DNA of 64,000 nt from an uncultured archaeon (GTDB lineage: Archaea > Asgardarchaeota > Lokiarchaeia > Sigyniarchaeales > SOKP01). The DNA lies in contig CAZWEM010000002.1 of the NCBI GenBank assembly GCA_964632315.1, positions 32,001-96,000 on the forward strand, read 5' to 3'. How positions within the stretch are numbered: the first letter of the stretch is position 1; every line of letters starts with the position of its first letter. Made by a program: the position numbers and the translations under genes. The notes under the pieces were generated by a model. The model saw only the letters and a list, made by a program, of their open reading frames with translations, was not told the DNA's origin and did not search any database. Positions 5,498 to 50,237 of this stretch are shown here, in pieces.

Positions 5498-5919
5498 TCT
5501 CAGATTCCAACTCGTGGTCCTTTTCTTTCTTAAATATCTTATTATAGATATAATATTTTAATTTTTGTTTCATTATTTTTGATTTTGAGATTTTAGAAAC
5601 TTGTTAAATGCTTAATAAATTCTTGAGAAGCATAAAAAGTAATGAAAGTTCTAATTATATCTGCCACAGTGTAAAATAGCATTGTCAGAAAAATATTATT
5701 ATCTTTTTAATAAAAAAAAAAAAATTATTTTTATAGTGGTATTTTGTCGGTTCGAGTATTTTTAGCACATTTTAGATCCAAAAAATTCTATCAATAAGAT
5801 TTACAAGATCCCTATTTCGAACCATAACATTTATATAATAGAAATTCGTAGATATTATTAATTATAAATCTATTTTAAAATAGTATTATCTTGAAAATAA
5901 AATTGTGGAGGAATAAAAA

Positions 5920-6153
5920 ATGGCTAAAAAGAAACCAGCACCAAAGAAAGCTGAATCTTACATTGCTAAAGCTCCAATAAGAAGATTAATGAAAAAAGAA
6001 GGAGCCGACTTAGTAGCTGCTGAGGCGCTGGATAAATTAATTGGATTTCTTGAGTCAAAAGCGGCTGAAGTAACCAAAGAAGCTCATAAAATCTGCAAAG
6101 CTGAAAAGCGTAAGCGGATTTCTGCTGCTGATATTAGAAATGCAACAAGATAA
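5920..6153 (+). CDS. Archaeal histone with short Lys/Pro-rich N-terminal extension
   Basis: Histone fold APIRRLMK..GA..V...A...RK.I...DI, strong SD GGAGG, leader MAKKKPAPKKAES. Confidence 0.92.
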   Translation: MAKKKPAPKKAESYIAKAPIRRLMKKEGADLVAAEALDKLIGFLESKAAEVTKEAHKICKAEKRKRISAADIRNATR

Positions 6154-6195
6154 AGTAGCAATAACTTTAATTGAAAATTTTTTTTTATCTCTTAT

Positions 6196-6717
6196 TTATT
6201 TTCGTTCAAAAAACTCCTTATTTAGGAAAAGCGAGATATTTTCTTCTAACTTTTTCTTAACAGCTTTTAATCCTTCTGGTAGAACTCTTGTTTTTCCGAC
6301 GATATCAATGAATCCCAGTTCTGATCCATATCTCGGTACTACATGAAAATGAAGGTGTTCAATACTGCCCCCAGCAACTTTCCCTTCATTCATACCAATA
6401 TTGTATCCAATTGGATTGTAAAGTTTATCTAGTAATAGTTGTAACCCTTGGATGGCTTTCGTGATATGCATTATCTCATCTTGAGTTAATTCGAGGAACC
6501 TGAGAATATGTCTATTTGGTATAACCATTAAATGACCGGGATTGTATGGATAAAGATTAAGAGAGATGAATAATATCTCATCTTGGTATATTTTGAGTAC
6601 AACGACCCGTTCATCATCATCTCTTACTCCGCATAAAATACACTTAATGTTAGGTCGCTTTTTGCCCTGTACATACTCTAACTTTCCTAAAGCCTGGAGC
6701 CAGTCATTGAAAACCAT
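6196..6717 (-). CDS. HIT-family nucleotide hydrolase (Ap4A phosphorylase-like)
   Basis: CILC, NLYPYNPGHLMV and the HLHFHVVPR triad. Confidence 0.92.
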   Translation of the reverse strand: MVFNDWLQALGKLEYVQGKKRPNIKCILCGVRDDDERVVVLKIYQDEILFISLNLYPYNPGHLMVIPNRHILRFLELTQDEIMHITKAIQGLQLLLDKLYNPIGYNIGMNEGKVAGGSIEHLHFHVVPRYGSELGFIDIVGKTRVLPEGLKAVKKKLEENISLFLNKEFFERK

Positions 6718-15203: not shown

Positions 15204-16391
15204 TTATCTAATAATTTTTTGTTGCTTTAAGAATTCTTCAAGATCCTCCAGATTTTTTTTAAAATTATATCCAAATGCATTAATTCCAGATAAGATTTGA
15301 TTTCCAACAACAACAGCTTTTTGCTTAATGGATATTGGATTTCCATTTATATCTTGATAAGCAATAGGGATTTTGGTCTCTGTAATCCCCCATAATAATA
15401 TTAAACCTGATGGTTCGAGAGTGCAAAAGTAATAATCATCAAGAATTTTGAGGATATTTTGAATTTCACTTGCGTTAAAATTTTTTGTAGAAGACAATTG
15501 GATACCATGGCCTAAAGCTAGCAAAACTCCTTCATCTAATTCATGTATTTGACTTATTTTATCCATGTATTCAATTTCAATAAGACTCCCACGAAGTTGA
15601 CTAATATTGTCTTCCATCATTCTTTGAGTAGCACCAGACTGCCAACCTACATATAGTTTTGTTTTATTTTGGGGATCTACATACGATAAATCGGCGGGAT
15701 GCGTATCATTAACATGAGGAGGTGCATTCTTTTGGTGAGAAAACATACAACGGCAAAATTGGAAATTATAACCCCTCGCAGATGCTATATCTGTTGGATA
15801 TCTTACTTTTTCTGCAATTTTCTCGCCTAAGATTTTATGAAAGCCATTTTGACGAATGTTAAACCTGTTTGCTATATCTTCCAAATTAATATCTTTCTCT
15901 TTCTCTGGAGGATACCAATAGCGTGTTGCTCTAATCGGATTTTCTTCATTTTGGTCAACATTTTCATGGTACCAATCATTAAAATCTAAGTTGATATTGG
16001 CTACTTTAAATCGTTTTGCGATTTCAGGACCATTACATCCATGTTCACGAGATTTATTAGATACAATTCCCTGGAGTATTATCGGAGGTTTACTTAGATA
16101 ACTCTTTACTTTCTGATATTGTTCAGCTTGAAATCTACCTGTTGAAAAACTACCTGAACCAAAAATAAGATTAGTTACGGGACGGTCTTGGCTTACGGGT
16201 ACTAAAGGTTTTATTCGTGATCCCAATTTTTTACCAATTTCTTCCCAAACATCCATGCAGATGGCTCGTAACTCTATGGGAGATATTTTCGTCCAAATTT
16301 TATTCGCTAAGCGATGAATGGAATCAGTATTTTGCTGGCTATCCAGTTCAACTTGGTTTAATAACTCTTCATAAGACACAATATGCACCAA
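15204..16391 (-). CDS. Divergent formyltransferase-fold (PurN-like) protein
   Basis: IFGSGS loop, ARGY, THPADLS and ELDEG occur in PurN motif order, with large insertions. Confidence 0.55.
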   Translation of the reverse strand: MVHIVSYEELLNQVELDSQQNTDSIHRLANKIWTKISPIELRAICMDVWEEIGKKLGSRIKPLVPVSQDRPVTNLIFGSGSFSTGRFQAEQYQKVKSYLSKPPIILQGIVSNKSREHGCNGPEIAKRFKVANINLDFNDWYHENVDQNEENPIRATRYWYPPEKEKDINLEDIANRFNIRQNGFHKILGEKIAEKVRYPTDIASARGYNFQFCRCMFSHQKNAPPHVNDTHPADLSYVDPQNKTKLYVGWQSGATQRMMEDNISQLRGSLIEIEYMDKISQIHELDEGVLLALGHGIQLSSTKNFNASEIQNILKILDDYYFCTLEPSGLILLWGITETKIPIAYQDINGNPISIKQKAVVVGNQILSGINAFGYNFKKNLEDLEEFLKQQKIIR

Positions 16392-16423
16392 TAAAATTGG
16401 TTATTGCATTTGAGGATATTATT

Positions 16424-16888
16424 TTATTTGTTTTTTTTCCTCTTCATAGTTTGTTGAAATTCGATGTAAACTCCTAATTGATCATAAGTATCAATATAAG
16501 CCACCTTTTGTACACCTGCGGTCAATCCTTGATGAACGATCTCAAAACCTTTATCCGTATACTTTTTAACTAACGCATCCACATCTTCCACATATACACC
16601 AAAATGATGTAACCCCTCTTTTCCAGCATCGATGAACTCTTTGAAAATACAATCTCCCTTAACATGTTCTATTAATTCAATCTGGACGTTCAAACTTCTG
16701 CTAAAACCAATATTAGTTTGTATAGTGGTTTCTTTCCCTCGGTAAAGATATGGTGTTGGTTTATTTTCTAAAAACGCAAACTTAGGTAGATCCAACTGTT
16801 CTTCAAGAATTCTAGCTTGCTTCTTAATATCTTTATAGACATAGCCAAGTTGGTTTATTTTTAAATTTCCAAGATCTATTTGCTCCAT
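16424..16888 (-). CDS. VOC/glyoxalase family protein (methylmalonyl-CoA epimerase-like)
   Basis: QLGYV, QIELIE, GLHHFG, YIDT...IEF. Confidence 0.88.
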   Translation of the reverse strand: MEQIDLGNLKINQLGYVYKDIKKQARILEEQLDLPKFAFLENKPTPYLYRGKETTIQTNIGFSRSLNVQIELIEHVKGDCIFKEFIDAGKEGLHHFGVYVEDVDALVKKYTDKGFEIVHQGLTAGVQKVAYIDTYDQLGVYIEFQQTMKRKKNK

Positions 16889-17052
16889 TAATCAAAACCT
16901 AAAATATTAGTCTGATAAAAGCATAGAATTAATGATAAGTTAAAAGTTTATAAATTAGTACGATTAAGAAATGGCAAAACTAAATATTTTATGGCAATAA
17001 AGAAAATATAAATAATAAATAGTAATACTAAAAACATATTTTAGGAATAAGT

Positions 17053-35792: not shown

Positions 35793-37028
35793 ATGGAATA
35801 TGCAACGATTCTCCCACAATATAATGTTATTCTTATTCGTTATGCTGAAATCTGGTTGAAATCTCAAAAGGTTAAGGTTAGGATGTTAAAAACTATGATG
35901 AACAACATTAAAATTGCTCTAGAACGTGAAGAAGTACCATTCCACAAATATCAAATGAGCAAAGACTCATCCCGAGTATTTTTCTTTTTTAACAATGAAG
36001 ATATGTTTAATGCAATAAATGTCATTTTAAGAGTGTTTGGTATCCATTCTATTAGTCCAGTATTACGGACCTCAAATAAAGCAAAAAATATAATAGAGAG
36101 ATCTATTGAAGTAGCTAAGAAAATCATGAATCCGAACGATAGTTTTGCGGTACGAGTAAAGCGTTCAGGAGACCATGATTTCACTTCTATAGAGCTTGCT
36201 AGTTTGGTTGGGAAGGAGATAAATGACAAATTAAGCTATTTAAATTTGAGTGTTAATCTAACTAATCCAGACAAAATAATTTATATAGAAGTACGAGATG
36301 ATTTTAGTTATATCTTCACGGATATTATTACATCACCTTGGGGAGGATTACCAATAGAATCGAGGAAGAAATTATTTATTCTTGATATTGGGAGATTGAA
36401 TGATTTGACTGCAGGTTTTTTAATCATGAGAAGAGGATCAGAAATCCATCCGATCTTATTTAAAATGAGAGATGACACAAAATATATTAAAAAATGGATC
36501 GAGAATTGGAGGCTTGCTGGACTTTATTCTCCTTATAAGAACTTTACAATAAATATTATTGATCTACATGCAATCATAACTGAGGTAATTCCCTTATTAA
36601 AAAACAAATCTTTAATTTGTTCATTATGCCGGATACTACGGTTTGCTACCATAGACAAGTTAAAAGATAATTTAGAAATTCCAGTTTTTCAAAAAACTCG
36701 AGCAATAGTTGATGGAGTTAGTTTTAATGACATGAATGATTGTTACGATGAGATAGATTTGAATTCCTTGGAATTAAATTATCAGTTTTCAGGATTTCCA
36801 ATTTTTACTCCTTTAATCGGGTTTAACCAGCAAGAGATAAAGGAATTAAATGAAAAGATATCAAAAGAGTTAATAAGATTGAATTATTGCGAATTAAAAC
36901 CACAAAATCAAATATTCCAAGCAGAAGAGGTCATAGAAACATTCAAGCGTCTTGATTTGGAATCATTAGTAAACAAAGCATTGAAGGAAATGAAAAAAAT
37001 AACAATTTCATTGTTAAGTGGAGAATGA
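35793..37028 (+). CDS. ThiI-like THUMP-domain protein with degenerate PP-loop
   Basis: IRYAEIWLKS, VFGIHSIS, THUMP (FAVRVKRSG.H.FTS...VNLTNPD..IYIEVR), GGLP. SGGIDS is replaced by IGRLND; CSLCR is retained. Confidence 0.85.
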   Translation: MEYATILPQYNVILIRYAEIWLKSQKVKVRMLKTMMNNIKIALEREEVPFHKYQMSKDSSRVFFFFNNEDMFNAINVILRVFGIHSISPVLRTSNKAKNIIERSIEVAKKIMNPNDSFAVRVKRSGDHDFTSIELASLVGKEINDKLSYLNLSVNLTNPDKIIYIEVRDDFSYIFTDIITSPWGGLPIESRKKLFILDIGRLNDLTAGFLIMRRGSEIHPILFKMRDDTKYIKKWIENWRLAGLYSPYKNFTINIIDLHAIITEVIPLLKNKSLICSLCRILRFATIDKLKDNLEIPVFQKTRAIVDGVSFNDMNDCYDEIDLNSLELNYQFSGFPIFTPLIGFNQQEIKELNEKISKELIRLNYCELKPQNQIFQAEEVIETFKRLDLESLVNKALKEMKKITISLLSGE

Positions 37029-37390: not shown

Positions 37391-37515
37391 TTATTCACTA
37401 TTAATTTATATAGATCTGCACTCTTAAAACTCGAAAAGTAAGAATTTATTAGTCTTAACTTCAATATTAAATTTATAGAGTCTTTTTCCTATATGTTAAA
37501 TTAAATTGATGGTGA

Positions 37516-38457
37516 ATTACGTTTACGAAAAAAGTAGCATTTCTGGGTCTTGATAATGCAGGAAAGACGTCAATTATAACAGTAATTACAAAAAGATTCG
37601 GATTTGAAGAGGAGGTTTTGAATCTACTCCCAACTAGGAAAATAGCCAGAGATGCATTTAAATTCTTAGGGATAGAATTTATTAGGATGGATTTTGGTGG
37701 CCAATCACAGTATAGAGAAGAATACTTAAAGAATCCGACAAAATACATCTCAGGTACTGATCTAATTTTCTATGTTATAGACGTTCAAGATTTTGATAGG
37801 TATGTTGAAACCATAGATTATTTAGATAAAATACTTATATATCTTAAAGAAGAGCAAGAATATCCCCCATTAGCAATTTTATTACATAAATTTGACCCTC
37901 AACTTGTAAAAGACAAGGAAATAAATAGCAGGGCATTAACGATAAAGCAAGCTTTGACCAGGTATAGTAATGACTTTGATATTTTTTTCTTTGAAACGTC
38001 TATTTATGATGTTAAATCAGTAATGGACACTTTTTCAAGCGGATTATCATTATTATTTGATAAAATAGAAATTGTTTCTCAATTATTAGCAGAAATAAGT
38101 AAAAACTACGATACCCTCCTTATTGCATTATTTGATTCAATGGGTATTACGATCGGAGAATATTATCGACCTCACATGCAATTAAAAGAAAAAATGCGCA
38201 TATATGATAAGTATTTAGATGTACAGAAAAGAATTATGGCAGAAAATAAAAAGTTATATGAATTCTCTGATAAATTCGATAATGGAGAGCGATATTCTGG
38301 ACTTATTGAAGTTTTATCATATGGAGAATTGGAATTTTACTTACTTTTTGTCATTGAAGAAGATCCAGAAAACTTGGGACAAACTGTAGAAATTCTGAAT
38401 AAGATTGAATCTGCTAGACCTCAGATGGAAAACATCATTTTCCAGATAATTCAATGA
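37516..38457 (+). CDS. Rag/Gtr-like small GTPase with probable C-terminal roadblock-like domain (non-canonical start)
   Basis: The frame is open upstream of the ORF-track start and reads ITFTKKVAFLGLDNAGKTS (G1), then PT, DFGGQ, HKFD, TSIYD. C-terminal LIALFDSMGITIG. Confidence 0.85.
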   Translation: MTFTKKVAFLGLDNAGKTSIITVITKRFGFEEEVLNLLPTRKIARDAFKFLGIEFIRMDFGGQSQYREEYLKNPTKYISGTDLIFYVIDVQDFDRYVETIDYLDKILIYLKEEQEYPPLAILLHKFDPQLVKDKEINSRALTIKQALTRYSNDFDIFFFETSIYDVKSVMDTFSSGLSLLFDKIEIVSQLLAEISKNYDTLLIALFDSMGITIGEYYRPHMQLKEKMRIYDKYLDVQKRIMAENKKLYEFSDKFDNGERYSGLIEVLSYGELEFYLLFVIEEDPENLGQTVEILNKIESARPQMENIIFQIIQ

Positions 38458-39518
38458 TCTTTTTCGTGTGATCTTATAAATTCACCTAATTTTTGTTTAT
38501 TAGGTGCTTCTTGACGAGTTATTTTATATAAGGAGGAAAATGTCGCATATTTCATGCAGTCTAAACTCGTCTTCTTTAATACTTGAACATTTTCTGGAAG
38601 AAATAAACGATCAAATTCTTCTTTGTTACCTATTAAATGGTACAATTGTGATAAAAATCCAGCAGCAAAAGCATCCCCGGCTCCGGTTAAATCTACAATA
38701 TGATCAATTTCAATAACTGAAAATTCTAAATGTATCTCATTCGTCAATAAATGAGATCCTCTCTTTCCTTCAGTATAGATCCGTATTTGGGCATATTTCT
38801 TCAATAAAGCATCAGCTTGTTCAACTTTTAACGCCTTTCCTAATATTTTAATAGCATCATCAAAATTGATGAATAAAATATCTTTCTTCTCTTGAATTAA
38901 TTCATCTAAAGTCGTCAAGGTTTGAATAGCTTGAAATTCAACTGTAACTACAGTAATTAGATCCTTCCTTGATCCAATTGTGAATAAATTAGAATATTTT
39001 TCAGAAAAAGGAGTTGAAAATAGTATTTTTGCATTATCAAATATACTTTCATTAATTTCAATTTGGTTGAAATTCATTTTTTGTTTCAAATTTGGTGCAA
39101 TGTATATTTTTGTTGTAATTTGAGACTTAATTATCGTGCTTACAGGAGTTAGTTCATCAATCTGGTATATATTCTCAGTAATTATGCTTAATTTGTTTAA
39201 CTCTTCGATCATCCAATTACTTCTTCGACCAATGACAGAGATTAGCCTCGTGGGAATGCCTAATGCAGAAATAATTTCTGCAGTGTTATTTCCATTTCCA
39301 CCTCTCTTTAAATAGCTAGAACCTTCTATTTTCTTAGAAATGTTTTCAATACCATTTGTAATTACTTTTTTTATGACTTTTGAATTTAGATCATCGGGAT
39401 TATATTTGATAAAATTAGCTAAATCAGATGTTAATTTTTCGATAATAATTTGATAAAAATTACTCTCATAGTATAGATCTTGATGTAATTCTCCAATAAT
39501 CACAATCTCTTTTCTCAT
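38451..39518 (-). CDS. PfkB/ribokinase-family carbohydrate kinase
   Basis: GGNGNNTA and VDLTGAGDAFAAGF. The real start is ATG 39518; the longer ORF overlaps the tRNA. Confidence 0.9.
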   Translation of the reverse strand: MRKEIVIIGELHQDLYYESNFYQIIIEKLTSDLANFIKYNPDDLNSKVIKKVITNGIENISKKIEGSSYLKRGGNGNNTAEIISALGIPTRLISVIGRRSNWMIEELNKLSIITENIYQIDELTPVSTIIKSQITTKIYIAPNLKQKMNFNQIEINESIFDNAKILFSTPFSEKYSNLFTIGSRKDLITVVTVEFQAIQTLTTLDELIQEKKDILFINFDDAIKILGKALKVEQADALLKKYAQIRIYTEGKRGSHLLTNEIHLEFSVIEIDHIVDLTGAGDAFAAGFLSQLYHLIGNKEEFDRLFLPENVQVLKKTSLDCMKYATFSSLYKITRQEAPNKQKLGEFIRSHEKDH

Positions 39519-39561: not shown

Positions 39562-39665
39562 CGCAGATGGAGGGATTTGAACCCCCGCGCGCTTTCACGC
39601 ACCAGCTTTCCAAAGTTTTTAAAAAACTCCTCGAGGCTGGCGTCTTACCACTAGGCTACATCTGC
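39562..39665 (-). tRNA. tRNA-Ser(CGA) with a 22-nt intron at 37/38 (39608..39629)
   Basis: Acceptor GCAGATG/CATCTGC, G73, D-loop AGTGGTA, anticodon stem CCAGC/GCTGG, loop CT-CGA-G|A, long variable arm with GAAA loop, GGTTCAAATCC T-arm, relaxed BHB; CCA not encoded. Confidence 0.9.
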
Positions 39666-39792: not shown

Positions 39793-40095
39793 TTAGTTAG
39801 AAGTAGGGATGTAAATTTTTAATTTTAATGAAGGATCGAATAATTTTATTAACCCTTCTTGTTCATACTTTTCCAATAATAACTTGGCAGTGGAAATCCG
39901 TATATCGTATTTTAATGCTAGATCTGAAGCTAAAATTGATTTTTTCTTCAGCAGGCTTTCTTTAATTTCATCCTCTAAAGCACCAGGGATAAATGCATCT
40001 CTTTCTACAATATTGATTTGCTTTGATCTTCCGTACTTTCTTTTTAAATTCAAGGTTGCTTTTCTTGTTAATAACTTGTCTTCTTTCTCAGACAC
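39793..40095 (-). CDS. rps25e: Small-subunit ribosomal protein eS25
   Basis: Basic N-terminus and wHTH ILASDLALKYDIRISTAKLLL..YEQEGLIK. Confidence 0.82.
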   Translation of the reverse strand: MSEKEDKLLTRKATLNLKRKYGRSKQINIVERDAFIPGALEDEIKESLLKKKSILASDLALKYDIRISTAKLLLEKYEQEGLIKLFDPSLKLKIYIPTSN

Positions 40096-40234
40096 AGTAA
40101 TCACAATTAGTTGAACAAATCTTATAACAGTTTATTTATAAAATATTTAAATTATAATAAAATTTTTGATTCTTTGTGAAGATAATCGAAAGACCCTTCT
40201 ATCCTTAAAATTATGCAACTAAAGTGACTAAAAT

Positions 40235-40867
40235 TTGAATGACGGATACAAATTCGAAATTAAACGTAAAAGACCTGAAGATATTTATAGAAATGTATTC
40301 GACTATTATGATTCTGATGAGATTTCAAAATATGCGGAATCAAAAAGTTTAATGAATATACAAGAAAAAATAACTATCAGGGCATTAGAAATTTTAGAAC
40401 TCAACAATAAGAATGCCTTGATTTTAGATTTAGGTTGTGGTCCAGGGTTTGCGGGTATCTATTTAAATGAACTCGGATATAAAATCATTTCCATAGATCT
40501 TTTATTAGATTTCCTAAGATATTATGATATTAAAGAATTAAGTCCAATACAGAGTGACATGAGTTTTCTTCCTTTTCGATCACGCATTTTTGATGCGATA
40601 GTTTCAATTTCATCTTTACAATGGCTTCACAGAATTTATCATTCGAAAACTACTATTAACTTAATTAAAAATCTTGCTGCAGATGTCTATAAGATATTAA
40701 AACCCTCATCAAAAGCAATATTTCAATTTTATCCTAAAAATGACAGTATTATGAAGGAAATAGGGAAGATTTTTATTGAATCCACTCCATTGGAAGGAGG
40801 TTTTATAATAGACAATCCAGAATCTGCAAAAAAAAGGCAAATTTTTCTAATTCTTAACAAGAATTAA
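40235..40867 (+). CDS. Bud23/WBSCR22-like SSU rRNA guanine-N7 methyltransferase
   Basis: RPE, IQ.KIT.RALE.L.L, ILDLGCGPG, PFR...FDAIVSISSLQWL, QFYPKND and GG.IIDNPES.K follow the eukaryotic Bud23 motif series. Confidence 0.85.
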   Translation: MNDGYKFEIKRKRPEDIYRNVFDYYDSDEISKYAESKSLMNIQEKITIRALEILELNNKNALILDLGCGPGFAGIYLNELGYKIISIDLLLDFLRYYDIKELSPIQSDMSFLPFRSRIFDAIVSISSLQWLHRIYHSKTTINLIKNLAADVYKILKPSSKAIFQFYPKNDSIMKEIGKIFIESTPLEGGFIIDNPESAKKRQIFLILNKN

Positions 40868-41036
40868 TTCTCGTTCGATTTAAGAGCGATTTATCTTTAT
40901 TGAAATCCAATGAAATACAATTTGTTATTTATTAGCTAAGAGTTAAATATGAAAAATTGTATAATAGATGGTAAAAAGTCCCACTTTTTAAATAAATAAA
41001 AATTGAATTTTCAAAAAACTTTTGTGTGAAATTTTA

Positions 41037-44000
41037 ATGATACAAAAAAAATTAAGTCAAAAACAACGCAAATTATTGGGTTTAACAACTCTTTTTGTCG
41101 TATTAAACATTCCCTTGCTATTAGGAATTTTTCCTTTAACAAGTCAGGACGTTGTTTCAAAACAAACTGAAGATAATGATGAAACATTGAATGTAAATGA
41201 TGTTGGATATGATTTATGGTGGAATACAAACTTTGAATATCGAAGTCTGATAAACATCACTAATCCCTATAATGAAGCATTTGATGATTTCGTCACTAAG
41301 ATTTCATTCAACTATACTACATATGTCACTATGGGTAAAATGAACGATAGTTTGAAAGACGTTAGAATAGTTCAAAATGGAATAGTAAAAGAATATTATA
41401 TTCAAAAAGATTTTCCTAACGAAGATATTGCAACAGTTTGGTTTAAAGTCAATGTAAGTGCCGGTCCTATAGTACAACAAGATACCTACATGTACTATGG
41501 TAATAACTCTATAGGGTTTGATGCAAAACTAATGGCTAAAAATCCAGATGGGTTAATTTGGTACAATTGCGAAGAAGGTTCGGGAAATATTTTAATTGAT
41601 AGCATGGGGAACTACAATGCCACTATTCATGCAGTTGGTGCTGATTTGTGGGATTCATCTGATCCTGCGATTGGAGCCTATTCTTTAACTTTTACAAATA
41701 ATGATTATATTGCCATACAAGATCTTTATTTTGAAGGTAGGAATACAATAGATGCACTTACAGTAATGGTATGGTTTAAGACAGCAGCATCCTCCTCTTC
41801 ATATACGGATAATTGGGCATTTTTCGATTTTGATCGTTCTGAAACATTTAATTTCTTCATTACACCAGGAACTGGAGGGAATCCAACGACTCCTTGTACA
41901 GAAGGAAGTATTGGTTTTGGAACATCCGCTCAAGGCTCTTCACCTGTCACTTCTGACTTTTTTAGTAATACGGATCATTTAAATGATGGAAGATGGCATT
42001 TTGCAGCTGCTAGCTACGATGGACTGGATAAAAGAATCTACATTAATGATTCTTTAGATAATACAGATCTCAATGCTCATGCAGGGCTAGCTTTAGGAAG
42101 AGATACGACTCGTTATGGATTCGTTGGTGATGGTTCTGAAGCATCTACTTTTGATGGAAATCGAAATGGCTTTTATTATACAGGAAGTTTAGATGAAGTT
42201 CGTTTTTTCGAACAATCTTTGGACGCGAACAGAATAGAACAGATATATAATGGTTATGAATTAGCGACTACATTGAACGAGGAACAAATACGATTTGCAC
42301 AAATAAGCGTCATAGCTAAGGATGTAGATGGTCGTATAGTACCAAACGTTGAAGTGACTCTTTACAATGAAACTGGCCCATTTTTAACTCAAACTACTGA
42401 TTCTAGAGGATTAGTGGAATTTATTGAAGTCCCTTTTGGAGATTATAATATGACAGCTAATTTTACATCTTCTCTCGGGGTGGAAAAAATGGTATTTAAT
42501 AGCAGTGAAATTGGAAAAGAATACTCCTTTAACGGACTAATATATAAGGTCTATATCGAATTAGATATTTGGGCGATTGATTTTCAAGTGGAAGATTGGA
42601 ATGGAGATCCAATGGATCAAGGTTTTATCGAAATATGGGATACTGATTCGAAAAACACATTGATTGATAACTTAACAATCAATCCTGATACAGGTTTACA
42701 GACTTTTAGATGGCTTAATACATCATCATATTACTATGAAATTTACTATAATAATCCTGATTATACTCCTCAGATAACTAAAATGAACAGTAGTACCATC
42801 TTACGCTCGAATTACGTTAATAACTTTAAAACCTTCACAAGAACTATAAATATAAATGAATCCGCGACTGAATATGTTGCACCATATTTTGGATTAAATG
42901 AGAACTATTACACGAGTGATTCTAATTCGACTGAGATTGGAAACACAAAAATTATCGATGCCACGTTCCAATTAGACAAAATGTTAGAGAGATTACATGA
43001 GATATATATTTACACGATTTCCAATAAGTACGATCCTACGTTTTATGATCCAAATGAGATATTTTATAAAAATTATGTCACTGAGACTTCTGATATCATT
43101 AACATTAATGTTACTGAAGCTACTGATGCTTTTGGATTGAGAATGGAATTATCATGGCTAAATACTTCAGCAAATTGTAATGGTACCGTTAATATTACAT
43201 ACACTCAAACATGCAATCAATTTATAAAACTCAACATGTCAAAATTAGAGATTAGAGTATTCGATTATACAGGAATTCCCGATCCTATTCAATATATCAT
43301 CGTGGAGGTTCGAAACAATTCTACAAAGGATTTAATAACGAGCCTTATTACTGATCCTGATGGAATCGCCACGGGTCAAACTTTAGGAGGTTATGGTTTT
43401 TGGTATTTGAATGACGTCTATGAATTTTCGCTGGAATTTTATGGTACACCAAATCGACCATTTAATGTTACCTATTCAGATCAGTGGGTAAAAGGAGATT
43501 TTGTTACTTCGTATAACTACACACTAAGTAAGGCATCTCTTCTGGAATTTGAAATGAATATCAATTTAGATAACTTCTTATCCGAGTTTAGAAATCAAAC
43601 TTGGGACACATCCACTGATTGGGGAGACAATATGAGCTTTGAAGTCAATTATACGATTTCAAGTGACGGAGGAAATAGCTGGAGCGCGATTTCGAGCCCG
43701 GATTATGCAATCTATAAAGTAAGAAAAGTTGGATTCAGTTCCATCTTGCTTAGCGGAGATATGGATGATCAAGGTAATGGAAATTATTCAATCACACTTA
43801 ATTCTGGTTCATTGACTGCAGGATTATCTTATACTTTAAGTGTATATGGGAGTAAAATTGGCTATATTGATCCTGATCCTGCTATAATGAGTTTCCAGGT
43901 AAATAGTGTTCCTACTAGTCTTACTTTCTATAATTACTCAAATCCAACACAAAGTATAACTTCTATATCTCAATACTATGGAGAATCAATGAATGTTTCT

Positions 44001-46595
44001 ATATTGTATAATAATAGTAATACAGATAATCCACTGTTGGGTGCTACTCTTAATTTTAATTGGGATTACGGTTCTGGTTCAATCATGAGCGATACGCGTA
44101 CTGGCTATGAAGAGTATTATGTTTTACAGATAGATACCACTTCATCACCTAATACGGGATTGTTTAAGTTCAAAGTTTCAGCGGAATTAGAGAATTATAC
44201 ATCACAAGTGAATGTGAATTTCGATGTATTCATACTTGATCGTCCCACCTTAATTAATGGAACAAGTCAAGTATTATACATTAGCGAAAATGTATATGCG
44301 CTTGATTCACAAACTTTCATATTCAATTATACTGATACAAACTCAGATAGCTTGATTGACAGTGCTAATGACGTTAATTACTTCTGGCAGAAATTAGATG
44401 AATTAGGTAATCCTATAATTGGCGAGACAGATTCCGGAGTATTAACTGAACTACCTAGCAACCTTTATCTTCTAAGTATTGGAACTGACGTTATGGAAGT
44501 AGGGGATTATTTTGTATACGTAACACTTCAAAAATTTAACTATGAAGACAGAGCAGCAATAATATCCTTATCAATTTTAGAACGTCCAACAAGATTAAAT
44601 GGCAGCTTGTCACTTCCTACAGTTTTTAAAAGTATAGACCAATTTGAGTCTTTTAATTTTACATTCACTTACACTGATTCATTAACATCTCAATCAATTA
44701 CTGATCTTGACATACAATCGTATAATTATAGCAGTGATGCTGAATCTTCTTCTGGTAATATTCCTCTTGGATATGATTCGAACAAAAAAATTTATTATCT
44801 TGATGGATTTGATACATCTACAAAGCCAAATGGCACGTATATTATAGATGTCTTTTTTGGGAAGCAGAATTACTCTAGTCAAACTGTGAGAATTAATTTA
44901 GTGATTAATTTTGTAATCAGTGATTATAATTCATCATTAAATCTAATTTCCAAAAGCCCACTTGATTTTTCTAATGATATTTACTGGAGAGATGAGGTAA
45001 CCGTTACATTCAATTTCACTACCAGTGATCCAACAAATGGAACTATTTTAAGTGACCCAGATTCTTTATACTTACAATTCCTTTATGATTCCCTTAATCC
45101 AATTGGAACTCAGATTAATTTACTCGGTTACAAGATTGCAACAGGAATTTATTCATACACCTTTAACACATCAGCATTTAATTTTGTTGGGGGTTATTCC
45201 TATTACATTAGCATTAAAGGTGGAAAATCTCCATATACTGCACCTCATGAGCTTCAGATATTATTCAAGGTACAATCTATTTTAACTCAACTTACAGTGC
45301 ATAATTATACAACTAATAACGAATATTCTCCATATGTAATTAATACATATTGGAATCAGCAATTCAATATTACGATTAGATATTCTGAAATTGCAACTGG
45401 TTGGAATATTGAGGGAGCTACAGTTAGTTTCAGTTGGTTCTTCGGATCTGGAGTAATTCAACCTGATTCTGTCAAGGGAAATGGATATTATACTTTTTTA
45501 TTTGATACGGGCAACGCTACTGAAACTTCCGTATATAATATCCAGTTAATAGCGACAAAGCAAAACTTTACAGACGGATTACCATACACCACTTTTCAAA
45601 TTAATATTATGGATAGGCCTACTGAATTAAACTCAACGGGTAATGTTTTCTATGTCAATGAAAAAATATACATACTTGATGTACATAACTTTACATTTAG
45701 ATACATTGATGTCTTAAGTTCCTCACCGATTTCTAATGCTGATGAATTAAGTTATATTCTTCAGAAGTTAGATTCAAATGGATACCCAATCTCAGGGGAA
45801 ACTTTTACTGGCTCTTTAATTGAAAATTCTCAGAATTATTATGTACTTGATTTAGACACGGAATCACTATCAAGTGGAGAATATTCCATCTTGATTACAT
45901 TACGCAAGGATAATTATGAATATCGAACTTCTGTTATGACTTTAACCGTACAAAAACGAGTATTTTCAATACAAATGAGCATCGATAATGAAATAGAAAT
46001 TGACGCAGCAAAATCTTTGCAATTCCAAGTAACTTTAACTGATCCGAATAATAGTTCAGCTACGGTTTCTGGAGCGGAAGTATACTTAATGATTGGTGGA
46101 ACCAGATACGATGCAAACGAAATAGATGATGGAGTATATCAATTCGATATTCCTGCCCTGGCGGATCCATTCTTTGTACCTGAATTCTTCAGGCTTGAAT
46201 TACACATTGAAAAGACAAATTTCCTTAATGAACAGAATACAATTACACTCAATGTAAAGATGAATGAAATCTTTCCGGGGGTTCCAACATTTTATTTCAT
46301 ACTGATTGTGGTTGGTGTGGCTGCTGTTGTAGGTTCACTTGTAGCATATCGAGCAATCCAACAAGCAAGAATTCCAAAGTTTGTTAAGAGGACAAGAGCG
46401 ATGAAAAAAGAGATAAAAGGACGCAAATCGATATCAGATAGTCTATTGTATCCAAGTAAAGAGGAATATATCCTAAAAGAACAAGGAGATAAATGGGACA
46501 TGATAGGTTTATCACTAGGAAGTATTTTAGGAATTGACACGAAAAGAAAGAAAACTATGCCAAAAACTCCTGAAAATGAGGGAGGTGTTGATTAA
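41037..46595 (+). CDS. Giant cell-surface protein: N-terminal signal/TM, DUF2341-like, LamG, Ig-like repeats, C-terminal TM and basic cytoplasmic tail
   Basis: WWNTNFEYR...YMYYGN, DGRWHFAAASYDG...GSLDEVR, repeated RPT.LN boundaries, many NxS/T sequons, TM FYFILIVVGVAAVVGSLVAY. Confidence 0.9.
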   Translation: MIQKKLSQKQRKLLGLTTLFVVLNIPLLLGIFPLTSQDVVSKQTEDNDETLNVNDVGYDLWWNTNFEYRSLINITNPYNEAFDDFVTKISFNYTTYVTMGKMNDSLKDVRIVQNGIVKEYYIQKDFPNEDIATVWFKVNVSAGPIVQQDTYMYYGNNSIGFDAKLMAKNPDGLIWYNCEEGSGNILIDSMGNYNATIHAVGADLWDSSDPAIGAYSLTFTNNDYIAIQDLYFEGRNTIDALTVMVWFKTAASSSSYTDNWAFFDFDRSETFNFFITPGTGGNPTTPCTEGSIGFGTSAQGSSPVTSDFFSNTDHLNDGRWHFAAASYDGLDKRIYINDSLDNTDLNAHAGLALGRDTTRYGFVGDGSEASTFDGNRNGFYYTGSLDEVRFFEQSLDANRIEQIYNGYELATTLNEEQIRFAQISVIAKDVDGRIVPNVEVTLYNETGPFLTQTTDSRGLVEFIEVPFGDYNMTANFTSSLGVEKMVFNSSEIGKEYSFNGLIYKVYIELDIWAIDFQVEDWNGDPMDQGFIEIWDTDSKNTLIDNLTINPDTGLQTFRWLNTSSYYYEIYYNNPDYTPQITKMNSSTILRSNYVNNFKTFTRTININESATEYVAPYFGLNENYYTSDSNSTEIGNTKIIDATFQLDKMLERLHEIYIYTISNKYDPTFYDPNEIFYKNYVTETSDIININVTEATDAFGLRMELSWLNTSANCNGTVNITYTQTCNQFIKLNMSKLEIRVFDYTGIPDPIQYIIVEVRNNSTKDLITSLITDPDGIATGQTLGGYGFWYLNDVYEFSLEFYGTPNRPFNVTYSDQWVKGDFVTSYNYTLSKASLLEFEMNINLDNFLSEFRNQTWDTSTDWGDNMSFEVNYTISSDGGNSWSAISSPDYAIYKVRKVGFSSILLSGDMDDQGNGNYSITLNSGSLTAGLSYTLSVYGSKIGYIDPDPAIMSFQVNSVPTSLTFYNYSNPTQSITSISQYYGESMNVSILYNNSNTDNPLLGATLNFNWDYGSGSIMSDTRTGYEEYYVLQIDTTSSPNTGLFKFKVSAELENYTSQVNVNFDVFILDRPTLINGTSQVLYISENVYALDSQTFIFNYTDTNSDSLIDSANDVNYFWQKLDELGNPIIGETDSGVLTELPSNLYLLSIGTDVMEVGDYFVYVTLQKFNYEDRAAIISLSILERPTRLNGSLSLPTVFKSIDQFESFNFTFTYTDSLTSQSITDLDIQSYNYSSDAESSSGNIPLGYDSNKKIYYLDGFDTSTKPNGTYIIDVFFGKQNYSSQTVRINLVINFVISDYNSSLNLISKSPLDFSNDIYWRDEVTVTFNFTTSDPTNGTILSDPDSLYLQFLYDSLNPIGTQINLLGYKIATGIYSYTFNTSAFNFVGGYSYYISIKGGKSPYTAPHELQILFKVQSILTQLTVHNYTTNNEYSPYVINTYWNQQFNITIRYSEIATGWNIEGATVSFSWFFGSGVIQPDSVKGNGYYTFLFDTGNATETSVYNIQLIATKQNFTDGLPYTTFQINIMDRPTELNSTGNVFYVNEKIYILDVHNFTFRYIDVLSSSPISNADELSYILQKLDSNGYPISGETFTGSLIENSQNYYVLDLDTESLSSGEYSILITLRKDNYEYRTSVMTLTVQKRVFSIQMSIDNEIEIDAAKSLQFQVTLTDPNNSSATVSGAEVYLMIGGTRYDANEIDDGVYQFDIPALADPFFVPEFFRLELHIEKTNFLNEQNTITLNVKMNEIFPGVPTFYFILIVVGVAAVVGSLVAYRAIQQARIPKFVKRTRAMKKEIKGRKSISDSLLYPSKEEYILKEQGDKWDMIGLSLGSILGIDTKRKKTMPKTPENEGGVD

Positions 46596-48730: not shown

Positions 48731-48875
48731 TTTTTCAAATCTCTATAAATTAGGTATAAAACGCTTACCATTTAAGTTTTTCTAAAATCAGAGAAAAAAA
48801 TCTCTAATTTAATCGGGAAATTTATAAATTCTTGTTCATTAATGAATCCACCAATAAAAATTAAACGTGATCACA

Positions 48876-50237
48876 TTGGAAGGAAAAATTCCAAAAGAAT
48901 TTGATGAAATTGATATGGAAAATCTGTCAAAGCCTAATGCTTTACCTGAAGACATTGATTATGAGAACCATATCATTGGTACTTATACCGCAATGCTCCA
49001 CAGAAAAATGGATGCATTCTATATGATGCAAGCGGTTTGTGTAGAGCAATCCACGGGAACATTTGTCCCTGTCCCAGCAGAAACTCCAGAAACAAGAAGA
49101 AAACATGTTGCTAAGGTTATCGGATGGTGGAGATTTCCTGATTTTGAATATGAAGGTGCTGAAGATTTTTTCGGTAGTCCAAAGATGTATCAGTACGTCG
49201 TACAAATTGCATATCCCTTGAATTTCAAACCACAATTCCCCATGTTATTCACTACAATCTATGGGAACATTTCAATGGGAGGACCTCTTAAATTAGTAGA
49301 TGTTAGATTTCCAAAAGCGTTCTTAAAAGATTTTAAAGGACCAAAATTTGGAGATGTGGGAATCCGAAAAATCTTGGGAGTAAAAGAGCGACCATTATTA
49401 AATAATATGATCAAACCTTGTGTTTATACAGATCCAAAAGTAGGGGCAGAATTAGCTTATAAAGCTGCTGTTGGAGGATGTGATGTTATAAAAGACGATG
49501 AGTTAATCGCTGACGTTGAATTTAACCCGATCACAGAGAGAGTTACGGCTTTTATGGAAGCATTAGATAAAGCGGATTCAGAAAAAGGTGAAAAAACTCT
49601 ATATACTGTAAACATAACGGATAGGGTAGACAGAATGTTTGAGCTAGCTGATATAGTTCAAGAACATGGTGCGAATGCAATAATGGTCAATCACATCTCA
49701 GTAGGATATTCTGCCTTACGAAAATTAGCGGAAGATCCTTCTGTAAAAGTACCAATTTTAGGGCACATGGATTTCGCTGGAACATTATATCAAGATCCTG
49801 TGAGTGGTGTTTCTAGTCCTTTAGTACTTGGTAAATTTGGGCGATTAGCAGGGTGTGATTTCATAGTTCACCCGGCTCCATACGGAAAGGCTCCAACTAC
49901 TGCAGATAGATTCAAAGAAACTGCTAGACAAATGGTGATGCCAATGCGAAATGCCCCACATATCAAGAGAACAATGCCAATGCCAAGTGGAGGTATTACA
50001 CAGAGTCTTGTTGAAAAATGTGTTGCTGATTTAGGGACTAACATAATGATTGGAAGTGGTGGAGCTATTCATGCTCATCCAGATGGACCTATTGCAGGAG
50101 CAAAATCATTTAGACAAGCAATTGACGCTGTAATGCAAGGAATTCCAGCTAGAGAATATGCAAAGGATCATAAAGAATTAGCAGTTGCCTTAGGTTTGTT
50201 CGGAGTTGGAAAGAAAACAGAATTTACTTCTGTCTAA
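48876..50237 (+). CDS. RuBisCO-like protein (form IV RLP)
   Basis: EQSTG, GNIS, GPKFG, IKP, IKDDE, PYGK, PSGG, GGAIHAHPDG. K177 and R295 equivalents are replaced by C and M. Confidence 0.9.
   Translation: MEGKIPKEFDEIDMENLSKPNALPEDIDYENHIIGTYTAMLHRKMDAFYMMQAVCVEQSTGTFVPVPAETPETRRKHVAKVIGWWRFPDFEYEGAEDFFGSPKMYQYVVQIAYPLNFKPQFPMLFTTIYGNISMGGPLKLVDVRFPKAFLKDFKGPKFGDVGIRKILGVKERPLLNNMIKPCVYTDPKVGAELAYKAAVGGCDVIKDDELIADVEFNPITERVTAFMEALDKADSEKGEKTLYTVNITDRVDRMFELADIVQEHGANAIMVNHISVGYSALRKLAEDPSVKVPILGHMDFAGTLYQDPVSGVSSPLVLGKFGRLAGCDFIVHPAPYGKAPTTADRFKETARQMVMPMRNAPHIKRTMPMPSGGITQSLVEKCVADLGTNIMIGSGGAIHAHPDGPIAGAKSFRQAIDAVMQGIPAREYAKDHKELAVALGLFGVGKKTEFTSV

Follow-up and report, generated by a model that had tools for sequence, protein, structure and literature searches.

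A short archaeal Bud23-type methyltransferase gene divergent from eS25 in a Loki-type genome, and its predicted Trm112 partner

In the small ribosomal subunit of eukaryotes a single P-site guanine is methylated by Bud23, and the locus described here raises the question of whether an archaeon carries the same enzyme, with the same partner and the same target. The gene concerned lies in a stretch of 64,000 nucleotides (hereafter the window) of an uncultured Loki-type Asgard archaeon, which displays a G+C content of about 30-33%. The genome comprises 4.45 Mb in 119 contigs, and close relatives carry the label Promethearchaeota, which together with the nearby Gtr1/RagA-type GTPase listed below identifies the organism as Loki-type. 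Public sequencing runs containing this DNA are salt-marsh metagenomes, and no RNA run containing it was found among the public runs listed.

The initial annotation of this DNA regarded Bud23 as a factor generally treated as eukaryotic. According to the reviews of Bourgeois 2017 and van Tran 2018, there is no archaeal Bud23 homologue and no modification is known at the corresponding 16S rRNA position (PMC5372719, PMC6144793). The reviews report that m7G is unseen at the site in the archaeal 16S rRNAs analysed, a set that includes no Asgard or DPANN species (PMC5372719, PMC6144793). Birikmen 2021 found that no eukaryotic ribosome-biogenesis factor is exclusive to Asgard archaea, with BUD23 listed in the supplement among the factors analysed (PMC8481954). 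Ebersberger 2013 described Bud23 “orthologs” in all taxa, including bacteria, with one domain missing, which suggests that generic methyltransferases had been picked up. The first archaeal rRNA m7G was reported by Tsai 2025 in 23S rRNA, where it is made by an unrelated THUMP-type enzyme, and for no other archaeal rRNA m7G is the enzyme known (PMC12124282). A full-text literature search found no paper naming both Bud23 and Asgard. Despite the reviews, it is already known to KEGG-based pipelines that proteins of the present type carry the label of the 18S G1575 methyltransferase; JGI/KEGG names the homologs “18S rRNA (guanine1575-N7)-methyltransferase”.

The core of the locus comprises three elements:

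40235..40867, plus strand: short archaeal form of a Bud23-type class I SAM methyltransferase, an open reading frame of 210 residues with a TTG start

40105..40234, no strand: A+T-rich divergent intergenic region of 130 nt, the presumed promoter region of both genes, from the sequence

39793..40104, minus strand: gene for ribosomal protein eS25, 103 residues, divergent from the methyltransferase (Pfam Ribosomal_S25 PF03297, NCBIfam S25e)

All six motifs by which the initial annotation had likened the methyltransferase to yeast Bud23 are present, and each aligns residue for residue with the yeast and human proteins in the PDB sequence search. They comprise RPE (residues 13-15), IQEKITIRALEILEL (residues 42-56), ILDLGCGPG (residues 63-71), PFRSRIFDAIVSISSLQWL (residues 113-131), QFYPKND (residues 164-170) and GGFIIDNPESAKK (residues 189-201). 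The basic C-terminal tail of the eukaryotic proteins had been described as missing and is indeed absent, Pfam returning only generic methyltransferase domains and no PF12589 (WBS_methylT); the chain stops at residue 210, 10 residues past the catalytic domain, while PF12589 was present in 5 of the 5 eukaryotic representatives checked with Pfam. A crystal construct of yeast Bud23 without the tail still binds Trm112 (PMC5372719), and the tail is thus a mark of the eukaryotic form, not of the catalytic family; eukaryotic functions linked to the tail are consequently not expected in the archaeal protein. The start codon in 92 related loci was TTG in 71, ATG in 10 and GTG in 8. An A/T block is conserved ~12-27 nt upstream of the start in the 92 loci, in which no obvious Shine-Dalgarno sequence was seen, and the transcript may be leaderless or short-leadered.

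Similarity searches identified Bud23 as the closest characterised methyltransferase both by sequence and by predicted fold, in line with the initial annotation. In a phmmer search of all PDB sequences, the best match was yeast Bud23 (PDB chain 4qtt_B; E-value of 2.3e-26, residues 13-208 against 3-200), and human BUD23 (6g4w_q) was recovered with an E-value of 5e-24. The five top matches are all Bud23 entries from yeast, human and a third species (E-values of 2e-26 to 7e-21, full length), followed, as the next solved structure, by a generic methyltransferase whose E-value of 1.9e-11 is 10^10-fold weaker or more. The alignment with Bud23 takes in two elements outside the Rossmann core, namely the RPE..IQ helix in the N-terminal part and the D.P motif in the C-terminal part, and the catalytic domain shares 30-34% identity with yeast and human Bud23 over its full length. 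The AlphaFold2 model, built on 57 relatives, displays a Rossmann-type fold (pLDDT of 94.2, pTM of 0.91). Its best 8 Foldseek matches are all Bud23 chains (TM of 0.75-0.92, rmsd of 1.8-2.6 Å), and the ninth falls to a TM of 0.62, with E-values of 2e-19 for Bud23 and 1e-10 for the ninth. A search of 1.84 billion representatives gave 274 matches at an E-value of 1e-10 or better, ~60 of which are archaeal-size proteins with the same motifs; among the 150 matches listed, the representatives examined were either archaeal short forms or PF12589-bearing eukaryotic Bud23. By sequence and by predicted fold, these data support the assignment of the window protein to the Bud23 family.

The residues that are kept within the family were compared in four groups, namely Loki type 1 (the window’s own), type 2 (the Loki paralogue plus Odin-like/f5 sequences), DPANN and eukaryotes. 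Residues G67, G69, G71 and D88 of the SAM motif align with yeast G55, G57, G59 and D77 and are conserved at 91-100% in the four groups, and they belong to a set of ten residues kept at 85% or more across all four (G67, G69, G71, D88, Y33, Q43, S124, S126, Y166 and P167). Across ~57 archaeal sequences, Q43, G67, G69, G71, S124, S126, Q129, W130, Q164 and Y166 are invariant, and seven of these (Q43, S124, S126, Q129, W130, Q164 and Y166) are conserved at 97-100% among 38 eukaryotic Bud23 proteins. In particular, Q129, W130 and Q164, which correspond to Q121, W122 and Q157 in yeast numbering, occur in 38/38 eukaryotic Bud23 and 14/14 DPANN sequences; in the window’s subfamily Q129 and W130 are present in 12/12 and Q164 in 11/12.

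The same genome contains a second gene of this kind:

Contig 63, 16243-16908, plus strand: Loki type 2 Bud23-like paralogue, 222 residues, best PDB match Bud23

The match of this type 2 paralogue to Bud23 is weaker (E-value of 1.6e-15), it shares 28% identity with the window copy and it lacks the N-terminal RPE motif. Residues Q129, W130 and Q164 are changed to N, F and E in 5-6 of the 6 members of the Loki paralogue, so that the window copy is the one that keeps the eukaryote-type pocket. The type 2 paralogue probably acts on a different target. The two genes also differ in position, the window copy being placed beside eS25 and the type 2 copy away from it on a separate contig, where it follows two CheY-type response regulator genes. 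Some uncultured archaea fuse two Bud23-like methyltransferase domains in one protein (one of 412 residues and four of ~380 residues), an arrangement consistent with joint action of the type 1 and type 2 genes that stand in tandem.

Matches at an E-value of 1e-10 or better were found in 153 of 400 genomes of the phylum. They are concentrated in the window’s family (126/134 genomes positive) and in another family of its order (13/14); among the 400 genomes the few other Asgard matches include a family of 1.3-1.4 Mb genomes, and most other Asgard families had none. Most Loki genomes have two matches, and closed genomes of the same order carry such genes. Archaeal-size members outside Loki are named Micrarchaeota, Nanoarchaeota, Norongarragalinales, Diapherotrites and Iainarchaeum, all of them DPANN, and the Bud23-type family, as defined by sequence, is thus not confined to Asgard archaea. 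The labels Hod-, Hermod-, Thor- and Odinarchaeota borne by loci 50-57% identical to the present one were judged unreliable, since in the 400-genome search matches of 50-58% identity occurred only in the window’s own Loki family.

A quick tree of 108 rows, with the genome's own generic methyltransferases as its root, places the eukaryotes as sister to all archaeal members and splits the latter into Loki type 1 plus DPANN and the Loki paralogue plus Odin-like sequences. The initial annotation had named a grouping with generic methyltransferases as the result that would speak against Bud23. In the 108-row tree the family stands apart from 3 generic methyltransferases of its own genome (SH-aLRT of 85). 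In a more careful tree of 55 rows one long outgroup branch falls inside. The careful tree supports the individual groups (eukaryotes 93/82, DPANN 97/91, Loki type 1 core 95/95, Loki paralogue 97/97), and its backbone is without support. The trees give no donor and no branching order, including which archaeal group is nearest to the eukaryotes.

The initial annotation placed the methyltransferase head-to-head with eS25, and this was confirmed: the small protein scores 32.3 bits against the Pfam PF03297 cut-off of 28.8, the NCBIfam S25e models agree, and eS25 is divergent across 130 nt here and upstream of the methyltransferase in 92/92 related loci, most of which belong to a single family, so that they do not count as independent. 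Measured by estimated start codons, the gap between the two genes in the 92 loci ranges from 73 to 174 nt (median 141). A ribosomal role had further been argued from a divergent promoter shared with the gene of a head protein. The conserved linkage supports this argument, and the promoter itself is deduced from the 73-174 nt gap; the two genes presumably share a promoter region within the 130 nt. Two deeper families within the same order keep the pairing with eS25 as well, and in these the genes run eS25, type 1, a tandem type 2 and then uS10. In the window’s family the type 2 copy is relocated and lies near uS10 in two genomes; in the present assembly, type 2 is found on contig 63 and uS10 on contig 64. 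In single-copy lineages outside this order, no eS25 was found within 3 kb of the gene. Both eS25 and uS10 are proteins of the small-subunit head, where the guanine targeted by Bud23 is also located.

Further features surround the pair:

39562..39665, minus strand: tRNA-Ser of 104 nt, with a long variable arm and an intron in the anticodon loop (Rfam RF00005, 47 bits)

37618-38457, plus strand: Gtr1/RagA-type GTPase of the eukaryotic Rag/Gtr1 type, 1.8 kb away (Pfam)

35793-37028, plus strand: ThiI/THUMP tRNA thiolation-type gene, in the neighbourhood of the locus

41022-46595, plus strand: giant protein of 1857 residues directly downstream of the methyltransferase, with one Laminin_G_3/ConA-like domain

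48867-50237, plus strand: RuBisCO large-subunit-like gene (PF00016, E-value of 6e-45)

The tRNA that had been noted at this locus is real, lying just beyond the eS25 gene and matching RF00005 over the full length of the model (1-71), with 26 nt inserted within the anticodon loop; ARAGORN reports no tRNA in the window and missed it. Read by eye, it is of class II with anticodon CGA and discriminator G. The anticodon together with the long variable arm identifies it as tRNA-Ser, and its length of 104 nt with the insertion indicates that it carries an intron. The called open reading frame of the neighbouring PfkB kinase overlaps the tRNA, and translation of the kinase probably begins with the Met at 39518. 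The GTPase is co-located with the eS25 and Bud23-type pair in 80/92 related loci. In the interval 37509-37540, its P-loop, GLDNAGKTS, lies upstream of the first ATG, GTG or TTG of the frame and directly after a TGA, and an ATG-GTG at 37509 stands one base out of the GTPase frame just before a run of six A (acgAAAAAAgt); this anomaly may be due to misassembly of the homopolymer, to a genuine frameshift or to the use of ATT at 37516 as the start. The 1857-residue protein contains many N-x-S/T sequons and, near its C-terminus, a hydrophobic segment followed by basic residues, features that make a surface protein probable; 65/92 related loci contain its N-terminal part.

Eukaryotic Bud23 acts with Trm112, and a search for this partner, proposed in the initial annotation, led to a gene elsewhere in the genome:

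Contig 41, 5716-6336, minus strand: long-form Trm112, 207 residues (Pfam Trm112p PF03966)

The protein scores 34.6 bits against a PF03966 cut-off of 22 over residues 5-166. The Zn-knuckle signature of Trm112 is [C/D]PX[C/D]...CX2C (PMC5372719), and the contig 41 protein matches it, but with a spacer of ~140 residues, as the two halves of the knuckle are split by a central insertion of ~130 residues. Residues C11, C155 and C158 are invariant and D14 nearly so among 40 relatives. The insertion splits the motif and therefore caused the true Trm112 to be missed in a six-frame Pfam search. In a phylum-wide search, same-genus relatives showed the Trm112 motif split by a long insertion, and these were used as queries to find the contig 41 gene; several sources name the relatives “Trm112 family protein”. 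Two motif-pattern searches of the genome for Trm112 gave nothing useful. A 76-residue protein on contig 56, the weak match given by the six-frame Pfam search, was rejected as Trm112, being a generic TFIIB-type zinc ribbon with a Trm112p score of 18 bits, below the cut-off. Odin-like genomes carry a Trm112 form of ~170 residues.

The modelled complex of the methyltransferase with the long-form Trm112 reached an ipSAE of 0.92, the best of 3 controls giving 0.00; the complex-score mark applied is reached by 58/80 solved complexes and 2/110 mismatched pairs. The model runs agree in at least 96% of contacts, the pLDDT of the partner is at least 90, and residues 103-115 of the methyltransferase contact residues 1-17 and 166-176 of Trm112. 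This interface has the β3/β-zipper geometry of the eukaryotic and Haloferax Trm112 complexes (PMC5372719, PMC6144793). Structures of Bud23-Trm112 have already been solved, and the result may thus reflect likeness to them rather than independent evidence. With this in mind, the model supports binding of the methyltransferase to Trm112 via a β-zipper.

The closest known system is the Bud23/BUD23-WBSCR22 and Trm112/TRMT112 pair, the 18S rRNA (guanine1575/1639-N7)-methyltransferase (KEGG K19306; PDB codes 4QTT/4QTU and 6G4W). The window protein has the same RPE..IQ helix, SAM motifs and SIS..QW and QFYP signatures as yeast and human Bud23. In contrast, it lacks the basic WBS_methylT extension, its gene is fixed head-to-head with eS25, and its predicted partner has the central insertion of ~130 residues, the topology of which recalls the inserted helical domain of eukaryotic Trm112. 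The host is a prokaryote in which the eukaryotic pre-40S context is not expected, and the activity and target of the archaeal form are predictions. The Trm112-dependent methyltransferases of Haloferax volcanii (Hvo_0019, PDB code 6F5Z; Trm9; Mtq2) are likewise class I enzymes with the same β-zipper (PMC6144793), and Hvo_0019 is among the weaker Foldseek matches (TM of ~0.6, 17-18% identity), but none of the Bud23 signature motifs is present in them, and they act on substrates that differ or are not established. RsmG (bacterial 16S m7G527) and TK0008 (m7G in the P-loop of Thermococcus 23S rRNA) are functional analogues as prokaryotic rRNA guanine-N7 methyltransferases (PMC5372719, PMC12124282), although they belong to unrelated families, modify other sites and are not described with Trm112 in these papers.

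Which base would such an enzyme modify? The initial annotation suggested that this archaeon may carry the equivalent m7G in its 16S rRNA. Its own assembly contains no 16S rRNA gene; in the 16S rRNA of three carrier genomes, GGAAUCCCUAGUAA lies exactly 55 nt upstream of GCACACACCGCCCGU. We take the second G of GGAAUCCCUAGUAA, by our own numbering, to be E. coli G1338 and yeast G1575. To our knowledge the target G is conserved universally, and its presence is therefore necessary and discriminates nothing.

A ribosomal role for a member of the Bud23 family is supported by the sequence, the predicted fold, the family-invariant residues, the Trm112 in the genome and the linkage to head-protein genes taken together. 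In the mechanism that we propose, the window gene would encode the catalytic subunit of an archaeal Bud23-Trm112 holoenzyme, cut down to the catalytic domain, whose β3 strand would pair with the Zn-knuckle domain of the contig 41 Trm112. The complex would act during small-subunit assembly and would place a methyl group on N7 of that guanine in 16S rRNA which corresponds to yeast G1575 and E. coli G1338 and would lie between the P and E sites, on the ridge of the head. Trm112-dependent N7-methylation of this guanine by the archaeal pair is the function we consider probable, with fair but by no means full confidence. The labels of the KEGG-based pipelines agree with this reading, while the lack of m7G at the site in the archaeal 16S rRNAs reviewed, the 23S position and unrelated enzyme of the characterised archaeal m7G, and the missing tail speak against it. 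We infer the RNA substrate, the exact nucleotide and the N7 chemistry, and the binding is that of the model; the finding is, in essence, an ortholog call from sequence with a predicted function.

The protein could instead be a Bud23-fold, Trm112-dependent enzyme with another archaeal substrate, be it some ribosomal protein (eS25, for instance) or a different nucleotide of rRNA or tRNA, and we hold this to be rather unlikely yet worth serious weight. Haloferax Trm112 has numerous partners with diverse substrates (PMC6144793), the strict pairing with eS25 would fit any substrate related to eS25 or the head, archaea lack the pre-40S context in which eukaryotic Bud23 acts, and m7G is unreported at the site in archaeal 16S rRNA. 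Against this, the Q-W-Q residues are kept in the window’s subfamily and in DPANN and are changed only in the Loki paralogue, which argues that the window copy retains the ancestral pocket, and conservation extends over the target G and the sequence around it. A mainly structural assembly factor of the small subunit, in which methylation is dispensable or lost, appears to us improbable. Reviews state for Bud23 that methylation of G1575 is not essential to its cellular function (PMC5372719; PMC4472018), and ribosome biogenesis in yeast and human needs the Bud23 protein rather than its activity, but the strong conservation of the SAM-binding and signature residues over ~57 archaeal sequences is the pattern of an active enzyme, and structural and catalytic roles are not mutually exclusive. 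A merely Bud23-like methyltransferase of small molecules, generic and of the BioC/UbiE/TehB type, is a reading that is very hard to credit for this protein: Pfam and NCBIfam return only generic methyltransferase models for it and NCBI names its relatives “class I SAM-dependent methyltransferase”, but its NCBIfam BioC score of 45 bits is far below the cut-off of 185, its Bud23 match spans the whole protein with the helix and motif outside the core, its fold match drops from a TM of 0.82-0.92 for Bud23 to 0.62 for the next protein, the listed representatives examined are archaeal short forms or PF12589-bearing Bud23, and the 108-row tree places the genome's own generic methyltransferases outside the family.

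Returning to the proposed Bud23-Trm112 holoenzyme, the new elements of the present analysis are the long-form Trm112 on another contig, its modelled binding and the residue-level contrast between the two paralogues. More broadly, and only tentatively, we suggest that Loki-type Asgard archaea and several DPANN lineages may carry a 16S m7G made by Bud23-Trm112 at the P/E ridge, and that in Lokiarchaea an ancient tandem duplication may have given rise to a second enzyme, its pocket remodelled from Q-W-Q to N-F-E, which would act on another site of the head. The pair in Loki, together with Bud23-type genes in DPANN, would point to an origin before eukaryogenesis or to an early transfer, and it predicts a specific, testable 16S rRNA mark in these archaea. 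If this is true, the “eukaryotic” 40S-maturation module would be older than eukaryotes, and these archaea would reveal the role of Bud23 without the eukaryotic tail and the pre-40S context.
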